Part shown: positions 16,858 to 28,725 of the stretch, one piece after another
Numbering within the stretch: position 1 is the first letter of the stretch
How the letters are laid out: each line of letters begins with the position of its first letter
Origin: Candidatus Heimdallarchaeota archaeon
GTDB lineage: Archaea; Asgardarchaeota; Heimdallarchaeia; Heimdallarchaeales; Heimdallarchaeaceae
Assembly (NCBI GenBank): GCA_030668875.1
Contig: DAOVER010000005.1
Coordinates: 1-32,000, forward strand
Length of the DNA: 32,000 nt
Direction: 5' to 3'
Made by a program: the position numbers and the translations under genes
Notes under the pieces: generated by a model
Database searches by the model: none
What the model was told of the DNA's origin: nothing
What the model saw: the letters and a program-made list of their open reading frames with translations, nothing else

Positions 16858-17121
16858 GATAAACCCATCTCGCTTAATTATTCAATCCTCGTTCTTTTCT
16901 AATGTTTTTAAACATGCTCATAGTAAATATTTTCTATAAATCTAACGCTAAGAAAGTAACCTTTGTGAGAAAAAGATAGATTACTTATCTGTAAAAAATA
17001 TTATGTTAAACGGAAGGTTTTTGATAGATTACTTTAGATTGAAAACAAACTTAAATAGGTTCATCTAAAGTTTATCAATAAAATTTGGTGGATATTGATT
17101 AGAAATACTGAGGAAAATTTA

Positions 17122-18390
17122 ATGAGTGAACAAGTTCCCCCTAAAAAAGAAGAGAAAAAAATCCAACAACCAGTTGTTAATATTGGAACCATTGGACATG
17201 TTGATAATGGAAAGTCTACATTAGTACAAGCTTTAACTGGTAAATTTCCAGACGATCATTCAGAAGAATTGAAAAGAGGTATATCAATCAGATTGGGGTA
17301 TGCAGACACAGAATTTCGTAAGTGTCCAAATTGCTCAGAACCTGAAGCATATACTGTGGAAAAAGAATGCCCCAAATGTGGAAAACCCTCTGAACTAATC
17401 AGACGTGTATCATTTGTTGATTGCCCAGGTCACGAAGTTTTGATGGCAACCCTTCTTTCTGGAGCTACATTGATGAATGGTGCGATCCTACTAATTGCTG
17501 CAAATTCAAGATGCCCTCAACCTCAAACAAGAGAACATCTTGCTGCTATGGAAATTCTTCAAATAAAGAATATCGTCGTTGCTCAAAACAAAATAGAACT
17601 AGTTACAGAAGAAGAAGCTAAAAGAAATTACCAAGAGATTAAGGATTTTATTAAGGGAACAATTGCTGAAGATGCACCAATAGTCCCAATAAGCGCAATG
17701 CATGGAGCTAACCTTGACGTATTAATTAATGAGATTGAGAAAAATATTCCAACACCAGAAATTGATCTAGATAGCCCATTTGAAATGCATGTAGCACGAT
17801 CTTTTGATATCAACAGACCCGGTACTAAACCAAAAAACCTCAAAGGAGGAGCATTAGGTGGATCAGTTATTCAAGGACAAATCAAGGTAGGGGAAGATAT
17901 TGAGATTGTTCCAGGGATTTCAATCAAAAAAGGAAACAAAGCAGCCTATCAAAAAATTATAACAAAAGTAGTAAGTATTGCAATAGGAGAGCAAGGTTTA
18001 GTAGATAGTGCCCATTCTGGTGGTTTAGTTGCTCTAGGTACAGAATTAGATCCATCATTTATAAAATCAGACAAAATGGGAGGAAATATTATAACAAAAC
18101 CAGGTGAAGGACCTCCAATACGTTCAACATTAAGTCTCAAAATTCGATTGCTCGAATATGTTGTTGGGTCAGAAGAAATAACTAAAGTACAACCTCTTGC
18201 ACAGGGGGAGACTCTAATGCTCAATGTTGGAACTGCAAAGACTTCAGGATCAATTACAGAAATCAAAGGAAAGGAAGCACAAATTAAATTGAGTAGAGAA
18301 GTAGCAACACGAACAAAAAGCCTTGTTGCAATATCTAGGCGCATTTCTGGAAGATTTCGGTTAATAGGCGTAGGAGAAATTTTCAATTAA
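17122..18390 (+). CDS. eif2g: Translation initiation factor aIF2 gamma subunit
   Basis: GHVDNGKS, HSEELKRGISIRLGYA, zinc knuckle, DCPGHE, PQPQTREH, QNKIE, RSFDINRPG and RFRLIG motifs. ATG 17122 has a GAGG SD. Confidence 0.97.
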   Translation: MSEQVPPKKEEKKIQQPVVNIGTIGHVDNGKSTLVQALTGKFPDDHSEELKRGISIRLGYADTEFRKCPNCSEPEAYTVEKECPKCGKPSELIRRVSFVDCPGHEVLMATLLSGATLMNGAILLIAANSRCPQPQTREHLAAMEILQIKNIVVAQNKIELVTEEEAKRNYQEIKDFIKGTIAEDAPIVPISAMHGANLDVLINEIEKNIPTPEIDLDSPFEMHVARSFDINRPGTKPKNLKGGALGGSVIQGQIKVGEDIEIVPGISIKKGNKAAYQKIITKVVSIAIGEQGLVDSAHSGGLVALGTELDPSFIKSDKMGGNIITKPGEGPPIRSTLSLKIRLLEYVVGSEEITKVQPLAQGETLMLNVGTAKTSGSITEIKGKEAQIKLSREVATRTKSLVAISRRISGRFRLIGVGEIFN

Positions 18391-18405: not shown

Positions 18406-18801
18406 ATGTTAGTTCTACTTGATTCTAGCATGTTAATGTTGCCTTTAGAAAAAAAAATTAATCTTAGTTATGAATTCGAAAGAATTCTAACCGTTGCTTT
18501 TGAAATTGTTGTTCCACAGATTGTTTTGATTGAATTGGAAGAACTAAAAGAAAAAGGTGAAATAGCTAAAAAACGCAAAGCACAACTTGCTTTGAATTTA
18601 GCTGGGTCTTTTAAGATGATAGAATCCAAAACAGAAGTGCACGTGGATTATGAATTAATACGACTTGCAGAGATTCACAAAGCTGTTATCGCTACAAATG
18701 ATAGAAAACTTCGATCTATACTCATAAACAAAGGAATGGCGGTAATTTCTTTACATGGTAAAAATAAGCTTGCTCTTTTTGGTGATTTATCTTATCAATA
18801 A
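18406..18801 (+). CDS. PIN-domain nuclease (Fcf1/Utp24-like archaeal family)
   Basis: LLDSS, VLIELEEL, VD.ELI and IATNDRKLR acidic tetrad; canonical neighbour of aIF2-gamma. Confidence 0.9.
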   Translation: MLVLLDSSMLMLPLEKKINLSYEFERILTVAFEIVVPQIVLIELEELKEKGEIAKKRKAQLALNLAGSFKMIESKTEVHVDYELIRLAEIHKAVIATNDRKLRSILINKGMAVISLHGKNKLALFGDLSYQ

Positions 18802-18928: not shown

Positions 18929-19498
18929 ATGGAAATAAAAAATGTTTTTCCTGAAATAGAAAAAATAGAGAATAAAATACTACAAGATAAAGTAGTTAAG
19001 TCACTTGAAAAAGCGATAAGCATGGGAGGATGGAAAGAAGAAGATCTTCAAATGATTCCTTTTACACTTTTGATCCCGGAATTGCTCGAAGGAGATAGCT
19101 TGGTCCCCAAAATAACAATTGTTGATCACATACGAGCAGTAACTCAGATGTGCATTGCTACATATGAGAGATATGAAACACTAGGATTAGCAGATAAACT
19201 CAATAAAGATGAATTAATTGCAGGGGGATTACTTCATGATGTAGGAAAGTTCATTGAATATGAGAGAAACTCTGGAGGAAAAATAGTTCAAAAGATAGAA
19301 GGAAAATTAATTCGACACCCCGCCATGGGTCTAGAAATCGTATATGAATTTGAGTTACCTATATTGGTAAGGCAAGCAATAGTCTTTCACAGTAAAGAGG
19401 GAGATAAAATCCCAAGGTTGCCAGAAGTAGACATAATTCATCGTTGTGATTTTCTTTGCTTTGCTCCTATTAAACAGATACTTGAGAACAGTAATTGA
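18929..19498 (+). CDS. HD-domain metal-dependent phosphohydrolase
   Basis: DHIRAV, LLHDVGK (HD), RHP, FHS.EG and CD motifs; SD GAGGT. Confidence 0.88.
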   Translation: MEIKNVFPEIEKIENKILQDKVVKSLEKAISMGGWKEEDLQMIPFTLLIPELLEGDSLVPKITIVDHIRAVTQMCIATYERYETLGLADKLNKDELIAGGLLHDVGKFIEYERNSGGKIVQKIEGKLIRHPAMGLEIVYEFELPILVRQAIVFHSKEGDKIPRLPEVDIIHRCDFLCFAPIKQILENSN

Positions 19499-19516
19499 CA
19501 ACTAAAGGTGAAAACA

Positions 19517-20650
19517 ATGAAGAAATATAAAATCGCAGTACTACCTGGAGATGGAATAGGAATAGATGTAACCAACGCGGCAATGAAGGTTCTTGAAACC
19601 GTTGGTTTCAGTAATATGGTCGAGTTTACTTGGGGTGACATCGGATGGGAGTTCTGGAAATCAGAAGGAAATCCTCTACCTGATCGAACAATAGATTTAC
19701 TCAAGAATTCAGATTGTTGCTTGTTTTCGGCTATAACTTCTAAACCAAAAGAAGAAGCACAAAAAGAGTTAGTTCCAGAATTGCAAGGAAAAGGATTAGT
19801 GTATTCCAGCCCAATTGTTAAGTTAAGACAACTATTTGATTTGTATACTAATTTACGCCCTTGCAAAGCTTATCCTGGTAATCCCCTAAACTTCAGAGAT
19901 GATTTAGACTTAGTTGTATTTCGTGAAAATACTGAAGGGCTTTATGTTGGAATAGAATTCCATCCAGTTCCTGAAGATGTGATGAATTGTTTAGTAGAGA
20001 ACCATCCTAAAGCTAAACGCTTTGCAGAAGCAGATTTAAACGATGTAGCTATTTCAACAAGAATTTTCACTCGAAAGGGAGTTCAACGAATTCTAAAGGC
20101 CAGTATGGATTATGCAAAAGAGTTTGATTATCCTACCGTTACTGTAGTCGAAAAGCCAAATGTTATTCGTGAGACTTCTGGTTTAATGATTCGAGAAGCT
20201 CGTAAGCTTATCCAAAATTATGAGGGGAAAGAACTTTGGGAAACCAATATAGACGCGATGTGTATGTGGTTAGTCAAAAATCCGCAAAATTATGGTGTTC
20301 TAGTAGCTTCCAACATGTTTGGAGACATTGTTTCTGATTTATGCGCTCAGTTAGTAGGTGGGCTAGGATTTGCTTGTTCAGGAAATATAGGTGATAACTT
20401 CGCGGTGTTTGAACCAAGTCATGGTTCAGCTCCAAAGTATGTAGGACAAAACAAAGTAAATCCTATTGCACAAATTTTATCCGCAAAAATGATGTTAGAC
20501 TGGCTTGGAGAGAAAGAAATGGCCAAAAAGGTTGAGGATGCCGTAGCAGCTGTTATAATAGAAGGAAAAATTCGAACTTACGACATGGGTGGTTCTTCAA
20601 CAACCACAGAAATGGCTGATGCAATTTGTGAGAAAATAAAAGGAATGTAG
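19517..20650 (+). CDS. Isocitrate/isopropylmalate dehydrogenase family, homoisocitrate-dehydrogenase-like
   Basis: LPGDGIG, LR..FDLYTNLRP, RENTEGLY, KPNV, NMFGDIVSD and EPSHGSAP motifs. The specificity loop YSSPIVKLR matches fungal Lys12 (YSSPIVALR). ATG 19517 follows a GGTGA SD. Confidence 0.9.
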   Translation: MKKYKIAVLPGDGIGIDVTNAAMKVLETVGFSNMVEFTWGDIGWEFWKSEGNPLPDRTIDLLKNSDCCLFSAITSKPKEEAQKELVPELQGKGLVYSSPIVKLRQLFDLYTNLRPCKAYPGNPLNFRDDLDLVVFRENTEGLYVGIEFHPVPEDVMNCLVENHPKAKRFAEADLNDVAISTRIFTRKGVQRILKASMDYAKEFDYPTVTVVEKPNVIRETSGLMIREARKLIQNYEGKELWETNIDAMCMWLVKNPQNYGVLVASNMFGDIVSDLCAQLVGGLGFACSGNIGDNFAVFEPSHGSAPKYVGQNKVNPIAQILSAKMMLDWLGEKEMAKKVEDAVAAVIIEGKIRTYDMGGSSTTTEMADAICEKIKGM

Positions 20651-20658
20651 TGATTACA

Positions 20659-20671
20659 TTCTTTCTTTTTT
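20659..20671 (+). terminator. Oligo-T tract after the dehydrogenase
   Basis: TTCTTTCTTTTTT in a 91-nt gap; may be an internal terminator or attenuation point. Confidence 0.3.
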
Positions 20672-20741
20672 GTCATTTATTTTATGTGTTTTAGTTATCT
20701 TAAATAAACACACAGAGATATATTTATTACTTCTTTACTAA

Positions 20742-22031
20742 TTGGTGAAATTGAGTAAAATGGTGGGGTCTACACTAATAGAGAAAATTATCAGAAAGCA
20801 TACAGATGCCTCAGATGAGGAGATTTATCCAGGTAATATTGTATGGATAAATCTTGATTTAGTAACAGCTAGAGACTATGCAGGACCACAAGTTATAGAT
20901 TTGTTTCTGAAACACTATCCTGGTTCCAATACTTTTAACAATAATAAAATAATCTTTACACCAGATTGTTACCCGTATGGAAATGATCCTAAACATGTTA
21001 AAGATCAAGAGAAAATACGTGTTTTTGCTAAAGAACATAATATTCGAGTAACGGATTTAGGATCAGGAATCGGTTCACATTTGTTATTCAGAAGAGGTTT
21101 TTCAAAACCCGGAGATATTGCTTTTGGAGCAGATAGTCATTATAATATATTGGGGGCGTTAGGGATTTTAGGGCAAGGAGCTGGGGATGTAATGTTAGCT
21201 TTCGCTTTCAAAACTGGAAAATCTTGGATAAAGATTCCGGAAACTGTTAAGGTTAAAATAGAGGGTAAATATACCTGGCCTACCACTTCAAAAGATTTGG
21301 CCCTATATGTCTTAAAACAGCTTCATGAGTACGGAATAACTGGAAAAGCTGTTGAATTTTATGGAGAAACAATCTCTGAATTAACAATTGATGATCGCGT
21401 GACATTATGCTCGCTCATTACAGAAGCATCAGGCATGATAGGGTTTGTTTCTGCTGATGAAGTAACTGCAGAATATTATAAACAACTCAACATCGACATT
21501 GAATTACTTTCTGGCGATGAGAATGCAAATTATGCTTCTGAACTTACAATTAATGTTGATAACTTGGGTTTATATGTTGCATGCCCACCTCACCCACACA
21601 ATGTTAAGCCTATTGAAGAGGTTCTAGGAACTCCAATTAAATCAATTATAATTGGCTCTTGCACGAACGGTAGTGCTAGTGACATTCATGAAGCTGCAAG
21701 AGTGCTCAAAGGCTCTCATGTAAATCCAGAAGTCCGATTTGGTATAGTTCCTGCAACTCGTGAAGATTTTGTTGAAATAAATCTAAATGGAGATATGACA
21801 GTAATATTAGAAGCTGGTGGCAATTTCTATGGATCTGGATGTTCAACTTGTGCTAAAGGTCAATATGGGTTAACAGGAGGAGAAACTGCTGTAACTCTAA
21901 CAACCGGCAACCGCAATACACAAGGTAAAATTGGTCCAGCGGACGTTTATCTGGCAAGTCCTGTTGTTGCTGCAGCAACAGCTATTGAAGGAAAGATTGC
22001 TAAACCAATAATAAAAGAGATGATTAAATGA
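20742..22031 (+). CDS. Aconitase-family (LeuC/HacA-like) large subunit with deviant active-site motifs
   Basis: Three Fe-S cysteines (IGSCTNG, GCSTC), ADSH and NRN motifs, but DH is replaced by DC and NRNFxGR by NRNTQGK. Start uncertain (20742, 20751 or 20760). Confidence 0.88.
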   Translation: MVKLSKMVGSTLIEKIIRKHTDASDEEIYPGNIVWINLDLVTARDYAGPQVIDLFLKHYPGSNTFNNNKIIFTPDCYPYGNDPKHVKDQEKIRVFAKEHNIRVTDLGSGIGSHLLFRRGFSKPGDIAFGADSHYNILGALGILGQGAGDVMLAFAFKTGKSWIKIPETVKVKIEGKYTWPTTSKDLALYVLKQLHEYGITGKAVEFYGETISELTIDDRVTLCSLITEASGMIGFVSADEVTAEYYKQLNIDIELLSGDENANYASELTINVDNLGLYVACPPHPHNVKPIEEVLGTPIKSIIIGSCTNGSASDIHEAARVLKGSHVNPEVRFGIVPATREDFVEINLNGDMTVILEAGGNFYGSGCSTCAKGQYGLTGGETAVTLTTGNRNTQGKIGPADVYLASPVVAAATAIEGKIAKPIIKEMIK

Positions 22032-22534
22032 GTAATGAAATTATTGATGGAAAAGCTAGAAAAGTTCTTGTTGATGATATAGATACTGATCAAATATTCC
22101 ACCAGTCACTTTTAACAATTCATAATCCCGAGGAAATCAAACCTCACATTTTCGGTAACTTGGATGGATATCGTGATTTCGGAAAGGAAAATCATACAGA
22201 CAAAATTCTTATTGTAGGAAAAAATTTTGGAAAAGGTTCTACTAGGCAACAAGCTGTAACTGGTTTTCTCGCCCATAAAATCAAGGCCATAATTGGTGCA
22301 TCCTTTGGACCAATTTATTACAGTAATGCCGTAAATGCAGGATTGTTCTTAGTTGAAGTTCCCAAGATTGCAAACTTCTCGATTGAAGAAAATGATGAAT
22401 TAGAGATAAATGTTGCTCAATCCTTGCTTACAAATAAAACACGAGGAACTAGTATTAAATGCGAAAAAATCCCGATTCCAGTTTTAGACATTATCAAAGC
22501 TGGAGGCTTAATGAGCTTAGGGGAGAAAATGTAA
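22028..22534 (+). CDS. Aconitase-family (LeuD/HacB-like) small subunit
   Basis: DIDTDQI, GKNFGKGSTRQQA (canonical GxNFGCGSSRE), SFGPIYYSNAVN.GL and AGGL motifs; ATGA overlap with the large subunit. Confidence 0.88.
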   Translation: MSNEIIDGKARKVLVDDIDTDQIFHQSLLTIHNPEEIKPHIFGNLDGYRDFGKENHTDKILIVGKNFGKGSTRQQAVTGFLAHKIKAIIGASFGPIYYSNAVNAGLFLVEVPKIANFSIEENDELEINVAQSLLTNKTRGTSIKCEKIPIPVLDIIKAGGLMSLGEKM

Positions 22535-22548
22535 TCAGAGGGATTTAA

Positions 22549-24399
22549 GTGACAGGAAAAACATTCTCAGAAAAGTTATTTTCGCTGAAATCTGGAGAGG
22601 ATGTAAGTGCTGGAGACATTGTGTACGTAGAGCCAGACTTAATACTTTCACATGATAATTCAGCATCTATTGTAAAAACCTTTCAAAAAATGGGTGGAAA
22701 AAACATATTATATCCGCAACGTCTAGTTGTTGTTTTGGATCATGATTCTCCTCCAACCAATGTTCAGTTGGCAAATGATCATCAAAGCATACGGGATCTA
22801 GTAACTGAACAAAATATAATAAATTTTTATGATGAAGGAACTGGAATTTGTCATCAACTAATGTCAAATCATGTGTTACCTAATATGCTAGTTGTGGGTT
22901 CAGATTCTCATACATGTACTAGTGGAGCATTTTCATCTTTTGCTGCAGGTATCGACAGAACAGAAACAGCTGGTCTTTGGCTTACTGGAAAAACATGGTT
23001 CAGAGTTCCTGAAACCATAAAGGTAAGGTTACTTGGAAAGTTTACCCCAGGTGTTTATGCTAAGGATTGTGCTCTTTATATAATGAACAAATTAGGATCA
23101 GCTGGTGCAACTTATCAAACTATCGAATTTCATGGAGAAGGAGTAGAAACGCTCTCAATTTCAGAACGCATGACCTTAACCAATTTGGCTTCTGAAATGG
23201 GCGCAAAAACAGCTGTATTTCCACAGGATAGCGTTTTGGTAAAGTGGTTAGAGGAAAAGCATGGAGTTTCATATTTAAGGGAAAGGGAAGTAATCTGGTC
23301 CGATGATGATGCTTTATTTAGTCAAGAAATTGTCATAAATCTCAGTGAGTTAGAACCATTAGTTGCAGTACCTCACCAAGTAGACAATGCAAACAAGATA
23401 TCTGATTTAGATGAGATTCCTATTCAAGAAGCATTTCTTGGGACATGTACAAATGCTAGATTAGATGATCTCCTTATAGCGGCTTCAATTCTAAAAGGTG
23501 AAAAGGTAAAATCAGGAGTACAATTTTTCGTTGCTCCAGCTTCTAGAGAGATTTATCTTGAAGCTCTTGCAAAAGAAGCAATTCAAACATTTGTAGAAGC
23601 AGGTGCAACAATATTATCCTGTAGTTGTGGTCCATGCCTGGGAAAGGGTCAAGGGATTCCAGCAGATGGTTGGAATGTAATTTCCACTGCAAATAGGAAT
23701 TTTCTTGGCAGAATGGGTAACAAAAAATCATACGTTTATCTTGCGTCTCCAGCAACTGTTGCAGCTTCGGTAATTGCAGGGAAGATTGTTGATCCCCGCT
23801 ATTACTTAAAGAAAGATACCAAGAAAACTACTTCATCACTAGAATTAGAAACAAGAATAAAACAAACAAAAACATTAGTTATTAGCTCAAGCGATGATAG
23901 AAAAATAAGCAATGCTTGGAACTATAGCGATATTGATGATTTCAACACGGATCAAATGTTTGCTGGATCATTGACATATGATATTAAATCAGCTGACGGA
24001 GAGAAAATCGTTGCTCATTTGTTTAAAGGGTTGGACGAATCATTTGCTTCTAGAGTAAAAAAAGGAGACGTAATCATAGCTGGATCAAATTTTGGTTGTG
24101 GCTCATCAAGAGAGCATCCTTCAGTAGGATTAGCTTTTGCAGGTGTAAGAGCAGTAATAGTAAAATCTGTTTCACGGATTTTCTATCGGTCTGCAATCAA
24201 CCAAGGATTACCAATAATAGTTCACCCACAGTTTGTTGAAAACTATAATTCAAAGGAAACCGTAATGATAGATTTGCAGAAGGGAAGTATCATGAATGGA
24301 GATAAGGAATACACATTTCCAAAATTACCTACTGAGTTATTAGAAATTTTCAATGCTGGTGGTCTTATCAAATATTATCAAATAAAATATTCAGAATAA
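22549..24399 (+). CDS. Fused large+small subunit aconitase-family enzyme (homoaconitase-like)
   Basis: SHDN, LDH, GICHQ, GSDSHTCTSG, GTCTN, CGPC and NRNFLGRMG, then a C-terminal domain with NTDQM and GSNFGCGSSREH. Domain order as in fungal Lys4/Leu1. Confidence 0.9.
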   Translation: MTGKTFSEKLFSLKSGEDVSAGDIVYVEPDLILSHDNSASIVKTFQKMGGKNILYPQRLVVVLDHDSPPTNVQLANDHQSIRDLVTEQNIINFYDEGTGICHQLMSNHVLPNMLVVGSDSHTCTSGAFSSFAAGIDRTETAGLWLTGKTWFRVPETIKVRLLGKFTPGVYAKDCALYIMNKLGSAGATYQTIEFHGEGVETLSISERMTLTNLASEMGAKTAVFPQDSVLVKWLEEKHGVSYLREREVIWSDDDALFSQEIVINLSELEPLVAVPHQVDNANKISDLDEIPIQEAFLGTCTNARLDDLLIAASILKGEKVKSGVQFFVAPASREIYLEALAKEAIQTFVEAGATILSCSCGPCLGKGQGIPADGWNVISTANRNFLGRMGNKKSYVYLASPATVAASVIAGKIVDPRYYLKKDTKKTTSSLELETRIKQTKTLVISSSDDRKISNAWNYSDIDDFNTDQMFAGSLTYDIKSADGEKIVAHLFKGLDESFASRVKKGDVIIAGSNFGCGSSREHPSVGLAFAGVRAVIVKSVSRIFYRSAINQGLPIIVHPQFVENYNSKETVMIDLQKGSIMNGDKEYTFPKLPTELLEIFNAGGLIKYYQIKYSE

Positions 24400-24411: not shown

Positions 24412-25722
24412 ATGAAATTATACGAATATGAAGCAAAACAAATTTTCGAAAAATTTGGTTTATCAGTGCCAAAGGAGATTGGTATAATAGAAAATATTAG
24501 CGATTTAGAAAATCTAACCTTGAGTTTTCCAATAATGATCAAAGCGATGGTTTTGATTGGAGGAAGAGGAAAAGCGGGTGGAATAAAAAAAGCTGATAAT
24601 ATTTCTGAAGCTAGTGACATCTGTAGCAAGATGTTTGATTTAATTATTCATGGTTATGCTATTAAGAAACTACTTCTTGAGGAAGCTGTAAGTGTAGCAC
24701 ATGAAATTTATCTATCTATAGCCACAGATCCAGCAACATTTGATCTTGTAATTGTTGTATCTGCTAGTGGTGGAGTAGATATTGAAGAAGTTGCAATAAA
24801 TCAACCTGAAGAGATTTGGAAAAAGACCTTAAGAGACAATCCTAAGACTCTTTCAGAGGAGATAAGTAAAGAAGCAGCAGATTTTCTAGTCGGACGAAAT
24901 TCTGAGTTGTCTTCAGTTAAAGAAAGTTTATCTACGACAATAATGGCACTATTTTCAGCTTTTCAACAGTCTGAAGCCAAAATATGTGAGATAAATCCAC
25001 TCATAGTAACCAACGATAATCAACTGATAGCTGCAGATGCAAAATTTGTATTAGATGATAATAGCTTATACAGACAAGCTCCATTGCTTAAATCAATCGG
25101 AATTGACACTCGAAGTAAGAGACATGATGTATCAGAGCAAACCAAGTATGAAGCACAGGCATATATTATTGGTTTTCCATTTCTAGATTTACTTGACAAT
25201 CCAGAGAGTTTTCAGAAAGAACAGGATAAGTTATATGTCGGATTAGTTCCTGGAGGAGCAGGTTATGGCATCTTTTCAATTGATGAAATTGTAAATGTTG
25301 GTAATCGTTATTTTGATGGAAAGGTAATTCCTATCAATTTCATGGATAGCGGGGGGGGGCCTTCCCTTAGTAAAGTTGCAGATATGTTTCACATCTTAAT
25401 GGATCATCCAGCAACTGACCTAATAATTACTAGTCGATTTGGTGGCATATCAAGTTGCGATATATTTATCCAAGGCCTAATTATGGCTTTAAGGGATAGA
25501 TACATCTCAAAGAGAAGAATGATTCCGGTCTTTGGCAGAATGGTTGGAACGGATTTAGCTGCTGCAAGAACTTTTCTTGACAAAGCAAAAAGAGAGTCAC
25601 CTGAACCTTTGAAAGATTTACACATAGTTGTTGGTAATCAAAAGATAATGGCAGATATCATCAAAGATGGTATTGAATATGGTTTTAGAACCAAAAAACA
25701 GAAAGAAACTGGAGGCAATTAA
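24412..25722 (+). CDS. ADP-forming acyl-CoA synthetase beta subunit (SucC / citryl-CoA synthetase / AclB-like)
   Basis: MKLYEYEAK, KA.VL.GGRGKAGG, EINPL and DAK..LDDN ATP-grasp motifs; GGAGYG, NFMDSGGG and FGGISSCD in the substrate-binding domain. Confidence 0.88.
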   Translation: MKLYEYEAKQIFEKFGLSVPKEIGIIENISDLENLTLSFPIMIKAMVLIGGRGKAGGIKKADNISEASDICSKMFDLIIHGYAIKKLLLEEAVSVAHEIYLSIATDPATFDLVIVVSASGGVDIEEVAINQPEEIWKKTLRDNPKTLSEEISKEAADFLVGRNSELSSVKESLSTTIMALFSAFQQSEAKICEINPLIVTNDNQLIAADAKFVLDDNSLYRQAPLLKSIGIDTRSKRHDVSEQTKYEAQAYIIGFPFLDLLDNPESFQKEQDKLYVGLVPGGAGYGIFSIDEIVNVGNRYFDGKVIPINFMDSGGGPSLSKVADMFHILMDHPATDLIITSRFGGISSCDIFIQGLIMALRDRYISKRRMIPVFGRMVGTDLAAARTFLDKAKRESPEPLKDLHIVVGNQKIMADIIKDGIEYGFRTKKQKETGGN

Positions 25723-27864
25723 ATGACAATTGAGAAACTATCAGCTGAACAAGGTTTGCTTCATTATTTCATTAAACAAGTTCGTCCAGAGCTTGCTGAG
25801 AAGATTACAGAAACTAAAATAATCGAAACTATGATTGTAGGATTAGGTAGACAAGGCACAAGGCATGCTCAACTCATGATGGAATATGGTACAAATGTTA
25901 CATGTGGTGTAGCTCAAGGAAAAGGTGGAACTTTAGTCCATGAAAAAATCCCTGTGTATGAAAGTGCAAAAGATGCGGTGGAAAAGCACCCCAATATCGC
26001 GGTAGCCAGCATTTGGAGACACTATTCAACAGCAAAGGATGCCACAATCGAAGTAATTAGAGCTGGGGTACCGATTGTTGTCTTGATTTCTGAGTTTATT
26101 CCACTGAAGGATGTCAGAGACATTCTTGTTGAAGCAAGGAAGCACAAAACGATTCTATTTGGTGGAAATACTCCTGGCATAATTTTTCCTCCTGAAGGAA
26201 TAAAGGTTGGAATGCTTCCAGACATCTTTCAAGCTGAACTGGTTGGGGATAAAATCGGACCAAAGGGTGTCACTATTCTTTCAAGAAGTGGAGCTATTCT
26301 TTACCACTTGTCTGATGCATTAGCAAGTGCAGGTATTGCTCAAAATGGTGTACTTGGTGTTGGAGGAGATGGTGCGATTGGTTCTCGCTTTGTAGACCTT
26401 GTTTCAAGAATTATGAGTTATGAAAATACTGATCTTGTTGTTATCGCTGGAGAAATTGGAGGGATGCAAGAAGAACTTCTTGGACAGGATATGATAGCAC
26501 ATCCAGAAAAATATTCTAAACCTCTTGTTGCTTTGATTTCAGGTGCTAACGCTCCCGAGGGGAAAACAATGGGTCATGCAGGAGCTGTTATCTCCCCTGG
26601 ACAAAAATTTGGAACTTATAACTCAAAGCGAGAGAGTTTGGAGCAAGCTGGAGTAACAGTAGTTAATCATCAACATGACCTAATTGAAGCTGTCAAAACA
26701 AAACTAGAGAGGTCATATTTTGATGTTGGGGGGTATTATAATAAAATGCAGAAGAAATGGGATGAAAAACCACCTGAAAAAACATGGGGTACTTTGATAA
26801 CAAATGCCATGCCTAACAACTTGATAATAAGAGGTTACCCACTACAAGATATTATTGCAAAAAAAGGACTGTTAGAAACATCTTATCTTTTACAAGTTGG
26901 AGAATTTCCAGATGTATCAACATTAGTTGAGCTAGAAAAAATAGCCATGGATGCAGCAAAACAACCGTTTGTAAACCAGAATGCAGTTCCCTCAAGTCCA
27001 GATATCTCAAAGATGTTAGGAACTTATCTCTTGATTGATACTAGCCTATCTAACTACATTAGTTCGACTAGTGATATAGCGAAAATTGCTTCGTTTAGTT
27101 TAGGAAGAATGTTACGGTATCTGGCAATACTCTTAGGAACCACAGATATGCTTGAGAATGCAAGTAATGAAAATACTTCTTTCAGAAAAATGATATATCT
27201 TGGACTTGTTGGAGAAGAACAACCAGATTTATTAAAAGTGAAGTTACTTGAATCCTTGGTAACAGCTTGTGTTGATCACGGCATAACACCCCCATCTGCT
27301 CAAGCAACATTGATATTAGCATCTACTCGTGCAAATTTTGAGGTAGCAATGTCTGCTGGTCTTCAAGCGATTACTGATGTTCATGGAGGAGCAGGGCAAA
27401 AAGCTGCTGGTTTCTTCTTGTCTATAGCAAAGAAAGCTAAAGAAGAGAATATTGATCTTGATGAAGCAACATTTGAATTAATTCGTAATACAATCAAAGC
27501 AGGTAAAAGAATAGAGGGTTTAGGTCACCGTATACATACTCAAGACCCTAGAAGAGATGTTCTTTGGCAACTTGCTGAGGAAGCAGGTTACGCAAAAGAA
27601 TGTGTTGCTATTTCAAAAATAGTAAGCGATGTTTTCTACAGAGTAAGAGGTATGAATCTTCCCATCAATGTAGACGGAGTGATAGCTGCAATTGTTGCGG
27701 ATATGAAATTAGATCCAAAACTAGCTAAGGCAATTTTCGTGTTTGGAAGAACAGCAGGATTGGCAGCCCATTACTACGAAGAAATTAGTACACAACCGCA
27801 AATGAGACGACTAGCATTTGATAAAGCTGTATACAAAGGATCTTCTATACGAGAGGTAAAATAA
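25723..27864 (+). CDS. SucD-like CoA-ligase alpha subunit fused to a citrate-synthase/citryl-CoA-lyase domain (ATP-citrate-lyase alpha-like)
   Basis: GGNTPG, SRSG, GEIGG and MGHAGA (phospho-His, about aa 285). From about aa 350: IRGYPL, DHG..PSA, HGGAG, GLGHR...DPR, NVDG and R..GL.AH..EE. Confidence 0.9.
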   Translation: MTIEKLSAEQGLLHYFIKQVRPELAEKITETKIIETMIVGLGRQGTRHAQLMMEYGTNVTCGVAQGKGGTLVHEKIPVYESAKDAVEKHPNIAVASIWRHYSTAKDATIEVIRAGVPIVVLISEFIPLKDVRDILVEARKHKTILFGGNTPGIIFPPEGIKVGMLPDIFQAELVGDKIGPKGVTILSRSGAILYHLSDALASAGIAQNGVLGVGGDGAIGSRFVDLVSRIMSYENTDLVVIAGEIGGMQEELLGQDMIAHPEKYSKPLVALISGANAPEGKTMGHAGAVISPGQKFGTYNSKRESLEQAGVTVVNHQHDLIEAVKTKLERSYFDVGGYYNKMQKKWDEKPPEKTWGTLITNAMPNNLIIRGYPLQDIIAKKGLLETSYLLQVGEFPDVSTLVELEKIAMDAAKQPFVNQNAVPSSPDISKMLGTYLLIDTSLSNYISSTSDIAKIASFSLGRMLRYLAILLGTTDMLENASNENTSFRKMIYLGLVGEEQPDLLKVKLLESLVTACVDHGITPPSAQATLILASTRANFEVAMSAGLQAITDVHGGAGQKAAGFFLSIAKKAKEENIDLDEATFELIRNTIKAGKRIEGLGHRIHTQDPRRDVLWQLAEEAGYAKECVAISKIVSDVFYRVRGMNLPINVDGVIAAIVADMKLDPKLAKAIFVFGRTAGLAAHYYEEISTQPQMRRLAFDKAVYKGSSIREVK

Positions 27865-27879
27865 CAACTCTAAACCTAA

Positions 27880-28725
27880 TTGAAGATGTCATCATCTTCA
27901 ATTAAAAACAACTTGTTGGAGATAAGAATGAAAGCTTTAGCATTTGAAATAATCGGGAGTATTTTGATTATAAGAGATTCAGCTAATGATAGAGATCTAA
28001 AAGAATTTGCGGAAAAAAAGATGAAGAGACATCCATATATCCAGACAGTTATGTTACAAACCTCAAAAATCCAAGGTCAGAAGAGAACTCGAGAGCTGAA
28101 ATTTCTTCTTGGGAATAAAAACTTTGAAACAATTCACAGAGAACATGGTAATCAATACATACTCAACCCCCTAGACACCTTTTTTTCACCTAGATTAAGC
28201 TTCGAAAGACAGAGAATAGCTGGTCTAGTCAAAGAAAGCGAAGTAATTCTTAATTTCTTTGCGGGGGTTGGACCCTTCAGTATTGCAATTGCCAAAAAAC
28301 AACCAAATTGCTTAATTCACAGTATCGAAATAAATAAAAAATCATGCAATTACATGCGAAAAAATATTGAACTAAATAATTGTGAAGACAATATTATTGT
28401 CTATTGTGGAGATGTTTTTGATATTGCTCCTCACAGATTTCTAAATTCTTCAAATAGAGTGATACTTCCGCTTCCCCTTGAATCAAAACGTTCCTTACCT
28501 TTGGCTTTTAAATGCTTAAAAGATGGTAAGGGTACTATTCACTGGCAAATAACAGATCATTTGAGTTCAAAGGTTGTCGACTTGAATGTAGTAGCCACAA
28601 GTATAGAGGAGATATTTGCAAGAGAGAAAATTTCAACCGAACATAGTATTAGTGAGCATCGTGTTGTTAGATGGATTGCTCCTCATATTGCACACATTGC
28701 AATAGATATTGAGTTAGGACAATGA
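27880..28725 (+). CDS. Trm5/Taw2 (Met-10+) family SAM-dependent tRNA modification enzyme
   Basis: FEIIGSILII, HREHG, FFSPRLSFER.RI, FAGVGPF, EIN and RVILPLP motifs. It appears to lack the N-terminal D1 domain. Confidence 0.88.
   Translation: MKMSSSSIKNNLLEIRMKALAFEIIGSILIIRDSANDRDLKEFAEKKMKRHPYIQTVMLQTSKIQGQKRTRELKFLLGNKNFETIHREHGNQYILNPLDTFFSPRLSFERQRIAGLVKESEVILNFFAGVGPFSIAIAKKQPNCLIHSIEINKKSCNYMRKNIELNNCEDNIIVYCGDVFDIAPHRFLNSSNRVILPLPLESKRSLPLAFKCLKDGKGTIHWQITDHLSSKVVDLNVVATSIEEIFAREKISTEHSISEHRVVRWIAPHIAHIAIDIELGQ

Follow-up and report, generated by a model that had tools for sequence, protein, structure and literature searches.

A SucCD-like gene pair with a full-length citrate-synthase-fold lyase module in Heimdallarchaeaceae, a candidate ATP-citrate lyase-like enzyme

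The locus

The stretch of DNA analysed here, referred to as the window, comprises 32,000 nucleotides (positions 1-32,000, forward strand, of contig DAOVER010000005.1, assembly GCA_030668875.1) from a Candidatus Heimdallarchaeota archaeon and has a G+C content of about 34%. It carries two adjoining genes that are the subject of this work. The first (24412-25722, +) encodes a beta subunit of 436 amino acids (aa) with a Pfam ATP-grasp_2 and a C-terminal Ligase_CoA domain, and the second (25723-27864, +) encodes an alpha-lyase fusion of 713 aa, in which a module resembling SucD, the alpha subunit of succinyl-CoA synthetase (SCS), is followed by a lyase module with the full citrate-synthase fold. 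The open reading frame of the beta subunit ends at 25722 and directly abuts that of the fusion at 25723. Within the fusion, SCS alpha matches and conserved motifs place the SucD-like module at residues 31-340 (25813-26742, +), preceded by a helical N-terminal extension of 30 residues that is conserved in the family, while model, structure and sequence matches place the lyase module at residues 349-713 (365 aa; 26767-27861, +). The corresponding Pfam domains are CoA_binding (35-124), Ligase_CoA (186-308) and Citrate_synt (365-692, profile positions 20-352 of 357).

The Heimdallarchaeaceae are close archaeal relatives of eukaryotes, and this pair is their only candidate for making or splitting citrate. 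The fusion is currently annotated as "citrate synthase" or "SCS alpha subunit", and metabolic reconstructions consequently rest on an enzyme that may run in either direction, with or without energy gain. Every curated NCBIfam model scored below its cut-off for both proteins. The SCS alpha model reached 210.9 bits with the fusion (cut-off 353.2) and the SCS beta model 226.8 bits with the beta subunit (cut-off 370), the citryl-CoA lyase (CCL) model NF004866 reached 192.5 bits (cut-off 245) over residues 483-711 only, and the citrate synthase models gave the fusion at most 85 bits, far under cut-off.

The ligase parts

Both ligase parts are closest to SCS. The alpha module matches SCS alpha 2yv2 in the PDB at 3e-52 and superposes on SCS alpha in Foldseek with a template modelling (TM) score of 0.91 and a root-mean-square deviation of 2.0 Å; its score is 181 bits against SCS alpha, 105 against the small subunit of citryl-CoA synthetase (CCS) and 100 against ATP-citrate lyase (ACL). 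The CoA-binding motif VGLGRQG (39-45), the motifs SRSGAILY (187-194) and GEIGG (243-247) and the phosphohistidine motif MGHAGA (283-288, with His285) are all present, and their residues are invariant in 50 family members. The PDB matches of the beta subunit follow the same order, with SCS beta 3ufx at 6e-48, the CCS large subunit at 4e-23 and ACL beta at 2e-10, the scores being 167, 85 and 43 bits, respectively. When the fusion is compared at full length, its best PDB matches in Foldseek are the ACL alpha chains 6hxj_B and 6znw_B and human ACLY.

The beta subunit has two loops typical of the family, NFMDSGGGP and TSRFGGISSCD, the latter identical save for one I-to-V change in 13 aligned family betas. 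At this acid site SCS has IN-x-x-GGITRCD and Asgard AclB has GGGIANFTDV, and judged from these alignments the loop is a family-specific variant of neither the SCS nor the ACL type, with SS in place of TR and a new Arg before FGG. The first-pass annotation, made from the sequence alone, had described the loop as SCS-like rather than ACL-like; FGGISSCD is indeed found at 343-350 and is not of the ACL type, but it is not simply SCS-like either. The citrate-binding domain of ACL, PF16114, is absent from the beta subunit (Pfam, E ≤ 0.001) and from the whole genome.

The lyase module

The lyase module combines the length of a citrate synthase with the motifs of a CCL. The distance from GEFP (393-396) to DHG (518-520) is 125 residues in the fusion. 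In an alignment of 81 citrate-synthase-fold modules this GExP-to-DHx spacing is 120-126 residues throughout the Heimdall-type family, fused or stand-alone, 127-134 in citrate synthases and 130-134 in a second long fused family of Planctomycetota type. Stand-alone CCLs and 570-aa SucD-CCL fusions have only 20-21 residues there, and Asgard AclA has 19. The gap of the short forms corresponds to fusion residues 399-503, a helical block of about 100 residues (26917-27231, +) delimited by comparison of the alignment. Citrate synthases fill 95% of these columns, and the block is missing from all sampled short CCLs, 570-aa fusions and AclA. The family profile likewise matches each short form as two pieces, with the break at profile positions of about 52 and 151, and the CCL chain 6hxp of H. 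thermophilus aligns to the module in two segments, leaving out module residues of about 58-145. Inside the block S429, K430, D439 and G461 are invariant and R462 nearly so among the 50 family members.

An AlphaFold model of residues 340-713, computed from 89 sequences with no templates and from an alignment without citrate synthases, had a predicted local distance difference test score (pLDDT) of 96.4. The model fits onto entire citrate and 2-methylcitrate synthases with a TM score of about 0.75, and in the VIA superposition with Z scores of 31-35 over 320-348 aligned residues (for the citrate synthase 1a59, Z 35.5 and 341 of 377 residues). Because the model superposes on these enzymes in their entirety, the module is, as modelled, a complete citrate-synthase fold and not a form of intermediate length. 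The first-pass annotation had measured a module of about 360 aa with some 120 aa between GEFP and DHG, and had noted that citrate synthases keep helices there that CCL and ACL lack. Both points were borne out; the intermediate character that it proposed for the module does not extend to length. By analogy, the retained block probably gives the module a dimer core like that of citrate synthase rather than the tetrameric CCL core of ACL.

In sequence the module is nearest to CCL. Its closest solved relative is 6hxp (3e-33), with citrate synthases following at about 1e-15, and the motifs DHG (518-520), VHGGAG (553-558), GLGHR (599-603), DPR (608-610), NVDG (649-652), FGR (674-676) and MRR (694-696) are in place. 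The family versions of these, DHG-[IV]TPPSAQA, D[VM]HGGAG, G[LM]GHR[IV]HT-x-DPR, LPINVDG, F..GR and MRR, are those of most short CCLs and are unlike the active-site motifs of citrate synthases, in agreement with the CCL likeness noted at the outset. The His/His/Asp triad and the three oxaloacetate-binding Arg are kept, and the CoA-binding, phosphohistidine and catalytic lyase residues are invariant across the 50 family members.

Phylogeny of the modules

The module trees were quick searches with support from the Shimodaira-Hasegawa-like approximate likelihood ratio test (SH-aLRT) only; deep branches among the short CCLs are weak in them, and the ACL and citrate synthase references were Asgard sequences only. 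In the lyase tree, built without indel columns, citrate synthases are split from everything else at 100% SH-aLRT, with the fusion module on the CCL/ACL side. The Asgard-type fused modules form one clade (98%) together with many stand-alone proteins of 345-380 aa. Fused and stand-alone forms are intermingled in the tree, which hints that fusion or fission happened several times, or that some genes were truncated where contigs end. One Thermoplasmata metagenome-assembled genome (MAG) has, in addition to its fused gene, a stand-alone long module of 354 aa (48% identity; L107:8806-9867) that lies 1.7 kb further downstream.

In the alpha tree the family is a 100% clade of its own, on a long stem among ordinary SucD and apart from the other fusion families, and the beta tree has the same shape, with the family as a 100% clade among Asgard SucC that is split from AclB at 100% SH-aLRT. 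All three trees separate ACL from the rest at 100%. The phmmer scores of the beta subunit corroborate this, being 130-190 bits against Asgard SucC and 19-28 bits against Asgard AclB. As both ligase parts branch among SucC and SucD, away from AclB and AclA, the assembly is on this evidence an ACL-like one that arose independently of type I AclAB, as the first-pass annotation had proposed. The modules do not all fall inside the AclA/AclB clades and the extra helices are not a common feature of ACL, since the splits from AclA and AclB stand at 100% and the helices are absent from the sampled AclA.

These data bear directly on the explanation that the pair is an ordinary type I ACL, an AclB/AclA orthologue which is odd through divergence only. 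The subunit and domain order is the same, ACL chains are the best full-length structural matches, and ACL homologues have been noted in most Asgard phyla (preprint). Against this, the pair is separated from AclB and AclA in every module tree, the beta subunit is far closer to SucC than to AclB in phmmer, AclA is without the 100-residue block, and genuine ACL with a Citrate_bind domain is found in 79 of 300 Asgard genomes and in none of 27 genomes of Heimdallarchaeaceae. We consider this explanation highly improbable, and membership in ordinary AclAB was rejected on the three module trees, the phmmer scores and the genome distribution.

The order of events on the CCL/ACL side is less firmly fixed. 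Citrate synthase has been proposed to derive from a short tetrameric CCL, according to a structural study as it is cited in PMC8857278. In the best tree under LG+F+G4 (IQ-TREE, 45 rows), rooted on citrate synthases as an assumed root, the first split separates the Planctomycetota-type long fusions and AclA from the short CCLs, the short fusions and the Heimdall-type long family. Long forms thereby stand on both deep branches of the CCL/ACL side, a pattern that points to an ancestor of full length and to repeated deletion. A single deletion, with all short forms in one clade, costs 28.5 log-likelihood units and is not rejected at 5% in the approximately unbiased (AU) test (p-AU 0.059); the AclA branch is very long and the deep supports of the lyase tree are weak. 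On this evidence the fusion module may, but need not, be an evolutionary intermediate between citrate synthase and CCL or an early branch. A sequence of CCL type in a complete citrate-synthase fold is the form that connects the two enzymes, and as it occurs fused and free and on both deep branches, the polarity of the transition between CCL and citrate synthase becomes testable.

The second long family consists of fusions of about 720 aa, SucD with a long citrate-synthase-fold module (P0145, P0411-P0502), in MAGs of Planctomycetota, Armatimonadota and Latescibacterota. Its representative P0145 is 31% identical to the Heimdall fusion and belongs to a clade of its own. In both trees AclA is the partner of this family's lyase module; the branches involved are long and the support stays under 95%.

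Distribution and gene neighbourhood

The fusion has at least 589 homologues, of which the top 120 are all about 712 aa long and at least 59% identical. By name, these top homologues belong to Heimdall-, Kari-, Hod-, Sif-, Borr-, Hermod- and Odinarchaeota and to Thermoplasmatota; a further protein, from Aminicenantales, is 54% identical. With one genome per prokaryotic species, the fused pair was found in 200 or more species genomes, which represent more than 10 archaeal and bacterial phyla, a large family without a characterised member. Relatives outside the Asgard archaea include those in MAGs of Thermoplasmatota, Bathyarchaeia, Acetothermia/Bipolaricaulota, Fraserbacteria, Zixibacteria, Aminicenantes, Planctomycetota and Thermotogae.

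Counts of neighbouring genes rest on 80 kept loci out of at least 200 relatives, 55 of them non-Heimdall, and the record names of these 80 include no cultured organism. Of the 80 loci, 78 have the lyase and alpha modules in one protein, and the beta gene lies directly upstream of the fusion wherever both were seen (74/74). Such strict pairing across phyla argues for one enzyme.

In the window, a block of genes (18929-24399) precedes the pair in the same orientation (+). It begins with an HD-domain (HDIG) phosphohydrolase gene (18929-19498, +; Pfam HD), followed by genes which Pfam and NCBIfam assign to a dehydrogenase of the isocitrate/homoisocitrate dehydrogenase (IDH/HICDH) family (19508-20650, +), a split aconitase-family pair (20742-22031 and 22028-22534, +) and a fused aconitase-family enzyme (22549-24399, +). 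Genes of the aconitase, IDH and HD families are again found next to the pair in Bathyarchaeia, Thermoplasmatota, Acetothermia and uncultured bacteria. Within 6 kb, homologues of the HD-domain gene were found in 23 of the 55 non-Heimdall loci, aconitase-family genes in 17 and an IDH-family gene in 6. The HD gene adjoins the pair in Thermoplasmatota, Bathyarchaeia, Acetothermia, Fraserbacteria and other groups; we know of no role of an HD hydrolase in citrate cleavage or synthesis. The aconitase-family genes that accompany the pair are of two distinct types, and the fused and split states are swapped between them in several uncultured bacteria (L110, L111, L130, L131, L135, L137).

Among 300 sampled Asgard genomes the fusion occurs in about 41. 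In the class-level survey 24 Heimdallarchaeaceae genomes had a PF00285 (citrate-synthase-family) gene, which in each of them was the fusion alone, and the sister families have ordinary citrate synthases, mostly without the fusion. Two single-contig genomes of one genus of the same family (G026 and G074, 92-93% complete) have no PF00285 gene, so that some close relatives do without any citrate-synthase-family enzyme.

Elsewhere the pair keeps more company. In one genus, probably of Hodarchaeales, citrate synthase, AclA, the fusion and a short CCL can coexist, and two Hodarchaeota or Hodarchaeota-like genomes have a short CCL-like gene of 257-260 aa about 1.7 kb from the long fusion (L039:4962-5744, G291; L109:3006-3776), so that the long and the short lyase module share a neighbourhood there. 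Among 35 genomes of other phyla, 8 have no PF00285 gene besides the fusion; it is joined only by a short CCL-like gene in 2, by AclA and no citrate synthase in 10, and by a citrate synthase in 15. As a replacement for citrate synthase, the fusion shows a clear pattern of co-occurrence only in Heimdallarchaeaceae.

Metabolic setting in the host genome

Genome-wide family searches were made in the assembly, which is 92% complete. A canonical SucCD pair lies on another contig and there are five genes for 2-oxoacid:ferredoxin oxidoreductases. No PF00285 gene was found beyond the fusion, and no PF00180 (IDH-family) or PF00330 (aconitase-family) gene outside the block. The searches likewise returned no flavoprotein C-domain of succinate dehydrogenase/fumarate reductase (SdhA/FrdA) and no haem-copper oxidase. 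With these two lacking, yet with five oxidoreductases and SCS at hand, the organism looks from its gene content like an anaerobe with a branched rather than a cyclic pathway, which fits either direction of citrate metabolism. In such a pathway the block would be the only link between acetyl-CoA and oxaloacetate (C2 + C4) and 2-oxoglutarate. In the genome, at 92% completeness, the searches returned neither an HMGL-like synthase nor DapA, and LysX above cut-off and further LeuB/LeuCD-family genes were missing too; a role of the block in lysine or leucine biosynthesis was rejected on these grounds.

A further explanation is that the C-terminal module works as a genuine hydrolytic citrate synthase and is merely attached to an SCS paralogue, as a metabolon or regulatory fusion, with no energy coupling between the two activities. 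This would agree with the complete fold, including the block that CCLs are without, with the sole citrate-synthase-family gene in Heimdallarchaeaceae, and with ligase parts that are nearer to SCS than to ACL. However, the module groups with CCL and ACL at 100% support and has their motifs, the ligase parts have long stem branches and altered substrate loops, with a canonical SucCD still present elsewhere in the genome, and the beta gene and the alpha-lyase gene remain strictly paired across phyla. A hydrolytic citrate synthase is for these reasons improbable.

Proposed function

We consider it fairly probable that the pair is a heteromeric ACL-like citryl-CoA synthetase/lyase, which would interconvert citrate + CoA + ATP and acetyl-CoA + oxaloacetate by way of bound citryl-CoA. 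Through its ATP-grasp domain the beta subunit, together with His285 in the alpha module, would link ATP/ADP + Pi to making or breaking the citryl-CoA thioester, and the fused lyase module would interconvert citryl-CoA and acetyl-CoA + oxaloacetate by means of His519, His602, Asp651, Arg610, Arg676 and Arg695. Citryl-CoA would be neither released nor hydrolysed by the fused module. Citrate as the substrate, channelling between the modules and the lack of thioesterase activity are what we infer, whereas the data establish the architecture, the fold, the conserved catalytic residues, the phylogenetic separation from AclAB, the strict gene pairing, the gene context and the distribution. The domain order of ACL type and the ACL alpha chains as best full-length structural matches speak for this enzyme, as do the dedicated beta gene that abuts the fusion and the separate canonical SucCD elsewhere in the genome. 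Further points in its favour are the invariant phosphohistidine, CoA-binding and catalytic lyase residues, the nearness of the lyase module to CCL, the standing of the fusion as sole PF00285 gene, the block with the only IDH-family and aconitase-family genes of the genome, and the return of these gene kinds next to the pair in other phyla.

Several observations weigh against it. The family has no assayed member, and all curated family models remain under cut-off. The beta subunit is without the ACL citrate-binding domain and its acid-binding loop is unlike that of both ACL and SCS. The closest solved relative of the neighbouring dehydrogenase is a homoisocitrate dehydrogenase, that of T. thermophilus, and citrate alone does not call for two aconitase-family enzymes. 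In 27 of the 35 genomes of other phyla the pair coexists with citrate synthase, canonical AclA or a short CCL-like gene, and in Hodarchaeales-like genomes with several of these; such coexistence would be in keeping with a separate role or another substrate.

The first-pass annotation had raised the possibility that the enzyme acts on an acid other than citrate. The same ligase-plus-lyase chemistry could act on another 2-hydroxy-tricarboxylate, either 2-methylcitrate or homocitrate (acetyl-CoA + 2-oxoglutarate), and in the homocitrate version the pair would form a 2-oxoacid chain-shortening or chain-extension module with its homoaconitase-like and homoisocitrate-dehydrogenase-like neighbours. 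These neighbours score best on homoaconitase and homoisocitrate-dehydrogenase models, if below cut-off, the T. thermophilus HICDH is the nearest solved dehydrogenase, two different aconitase-family enzymes recur with the pair, the pair often stands alongside citrate synthase and/or ACL, and the acid loop of the beta subunit is family-specific. The likeness to HICDH does not discriminate between substrates, because the T. thermophilus enzyme uses isocitrate too. Moreover, the three oxaloacetate-binding Arg and the loop lengths are those of most sampled short CCL-like proteins, and to our knowledge no citrate-synthase-fold enzyme uses 2-oxoglutarate. With LysX over cut-off, DapA and HMGL-like synthase all missing from the genome, a lysine-biosynthetic role would also be left without its downstream pathway. 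The suggestion of another substrate thus found no support in the module itself, where the triad and the three Arg are kept and the motifs are those of most short CCLs, and we regard it as unlikely. More doubtful still is the wider form of this idea, that a non-citrate ligase/lyase, for example for homocitrate, makes up with its dehydratase, dehydrogenase and HD partners an undescribed ATP-coupled module for 2-oxoacid chain shortening or extension in Asgard archaea and many uncultured anaerobes.

Desulfobacter postgatei is reported, in work of Möller et al. from 1987, to run ACL towards citrate with ATP gain. The ACL reaction is moreover near equilibrium, at -8.0 kJ/mol for cleavage (PMC13147460), and given this value and the D. 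postgatei precedent either direction is possible. We lean slightly towards ATP-yielding citrate formation in Heimdallarchaeaceae, since these look like anaerobes without any other citrate synthase; reductive carboxylation of 2-oxoglutarate followed by citrate cleavage would fit equally well. If citrate is formed with ATP gain, energy-starved anaerobes would have an extra step of substrate-level phosphorylation.

Comparison with known systems

Type I ACL, known from Chlorobium limicola (6hxj), Methanothrix soehngenii (6hxi/6znw) and, in fused form, as eukaryotic ACLY, shares with the Heimdall pair the two-subunit plan, the ATP-grasp beta subunit, the SucD-like phosphohistidine alpha module joined to a lyase, and the catalytic His/His/Asp and Arg residues. 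The Heimdall beta subunit differs in being without the Citrate_bind domain and the GGIANFT loop, and the lyase module in being about 100 residues longer (365 aa against the CCL type of about 260 aa), with the whole citrate-synthase fold; all three modules fall outside the AclA/AclB clades of the Asgard references. The two-enzyme system of H. thermophilus, CcsAB and Ccl (6hxq, 6hxp), likewise consists of an SCS-derived ligase and a CCL-type lyase and provides the closest solved relative of the latter. Its Ccl is, however, a stand-alone protein of about 260 aa without the block, whereas the Heimdall lyase is fused to alpha and keeps the block, and the Heimdall ligase parts resemble SCS more than CCS, with 181 and 105 bits, respectively, for alpha and 167 and 85 bits for beta.

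SucCD provides the closest relatives of both ligase parts in sequence and structure, and the phosphohistidine and CoA-binding motifs are kept, but the Heimdall parts stand on long stems, do not reach the curated cut-offs and differ in their loops at the acid site, where GGITRCD is not found. Citrate and 2-methylcitrate synthases (PF00285) have in common with the lyase module the complete fold, the triad and the oxaloacetate-binding Arg. They are only about 20% identical to it, and the Heimdall module differs in lying on the CCL/ACL side, in its CCL-type motifs (DHG-TPPSA, VHGGAG, GHR-HT-x-DPR) and in its fusion to a ligase subunit.

A type II ACL has been postulated from genes as an additional kind of citrate-cleaving enzyme, with a CcsA-like small subunit and a CcsB-CCL fusion as large subunit, in Magnetococcus (Mmc1_3638/3639) and in symbionts of the tubeworm Riftia (PMC3522073, PMC6783814), and ccsB-ccl fusions of Planctomycetes have been described as intermediates (PMC5459899). 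The Heimdall architecture fits the description of the postulated type II ACL (Hugler and Sievert 2011), a comparison by description only in which both sides are known from genes alone. These three papers on type II ACL and the Planctomycetes fusions make no mention of a full-length citrate-synthase fold, of Asgard members or of an aconitase/IDH/HD context. ACL homologues have been noted in most Asgard phyla in a preprint, and the literature searched holds for this family only such general mentions and those of type II ACL, and none of a long-form fusion. The family, its full citrate-synthase fold and its sole-gene role in Heimdallarchaeaceae thus appear to be undescribed there.

Flanking genes

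Upstream of the block, Pfam and NCBIfam identify an aIF2-gamma gene (17095-18390), and a gene for a PIN-domain protein (PIN_9; 18406-18801, +) lies between it and the HD-domain gene. The next gene after the fusion encodes a tRNA methyltransferase of the Trm5/Taw2 family (27880-28725, +), a position that is kept in 20 of 25 Heimdall-type loci.

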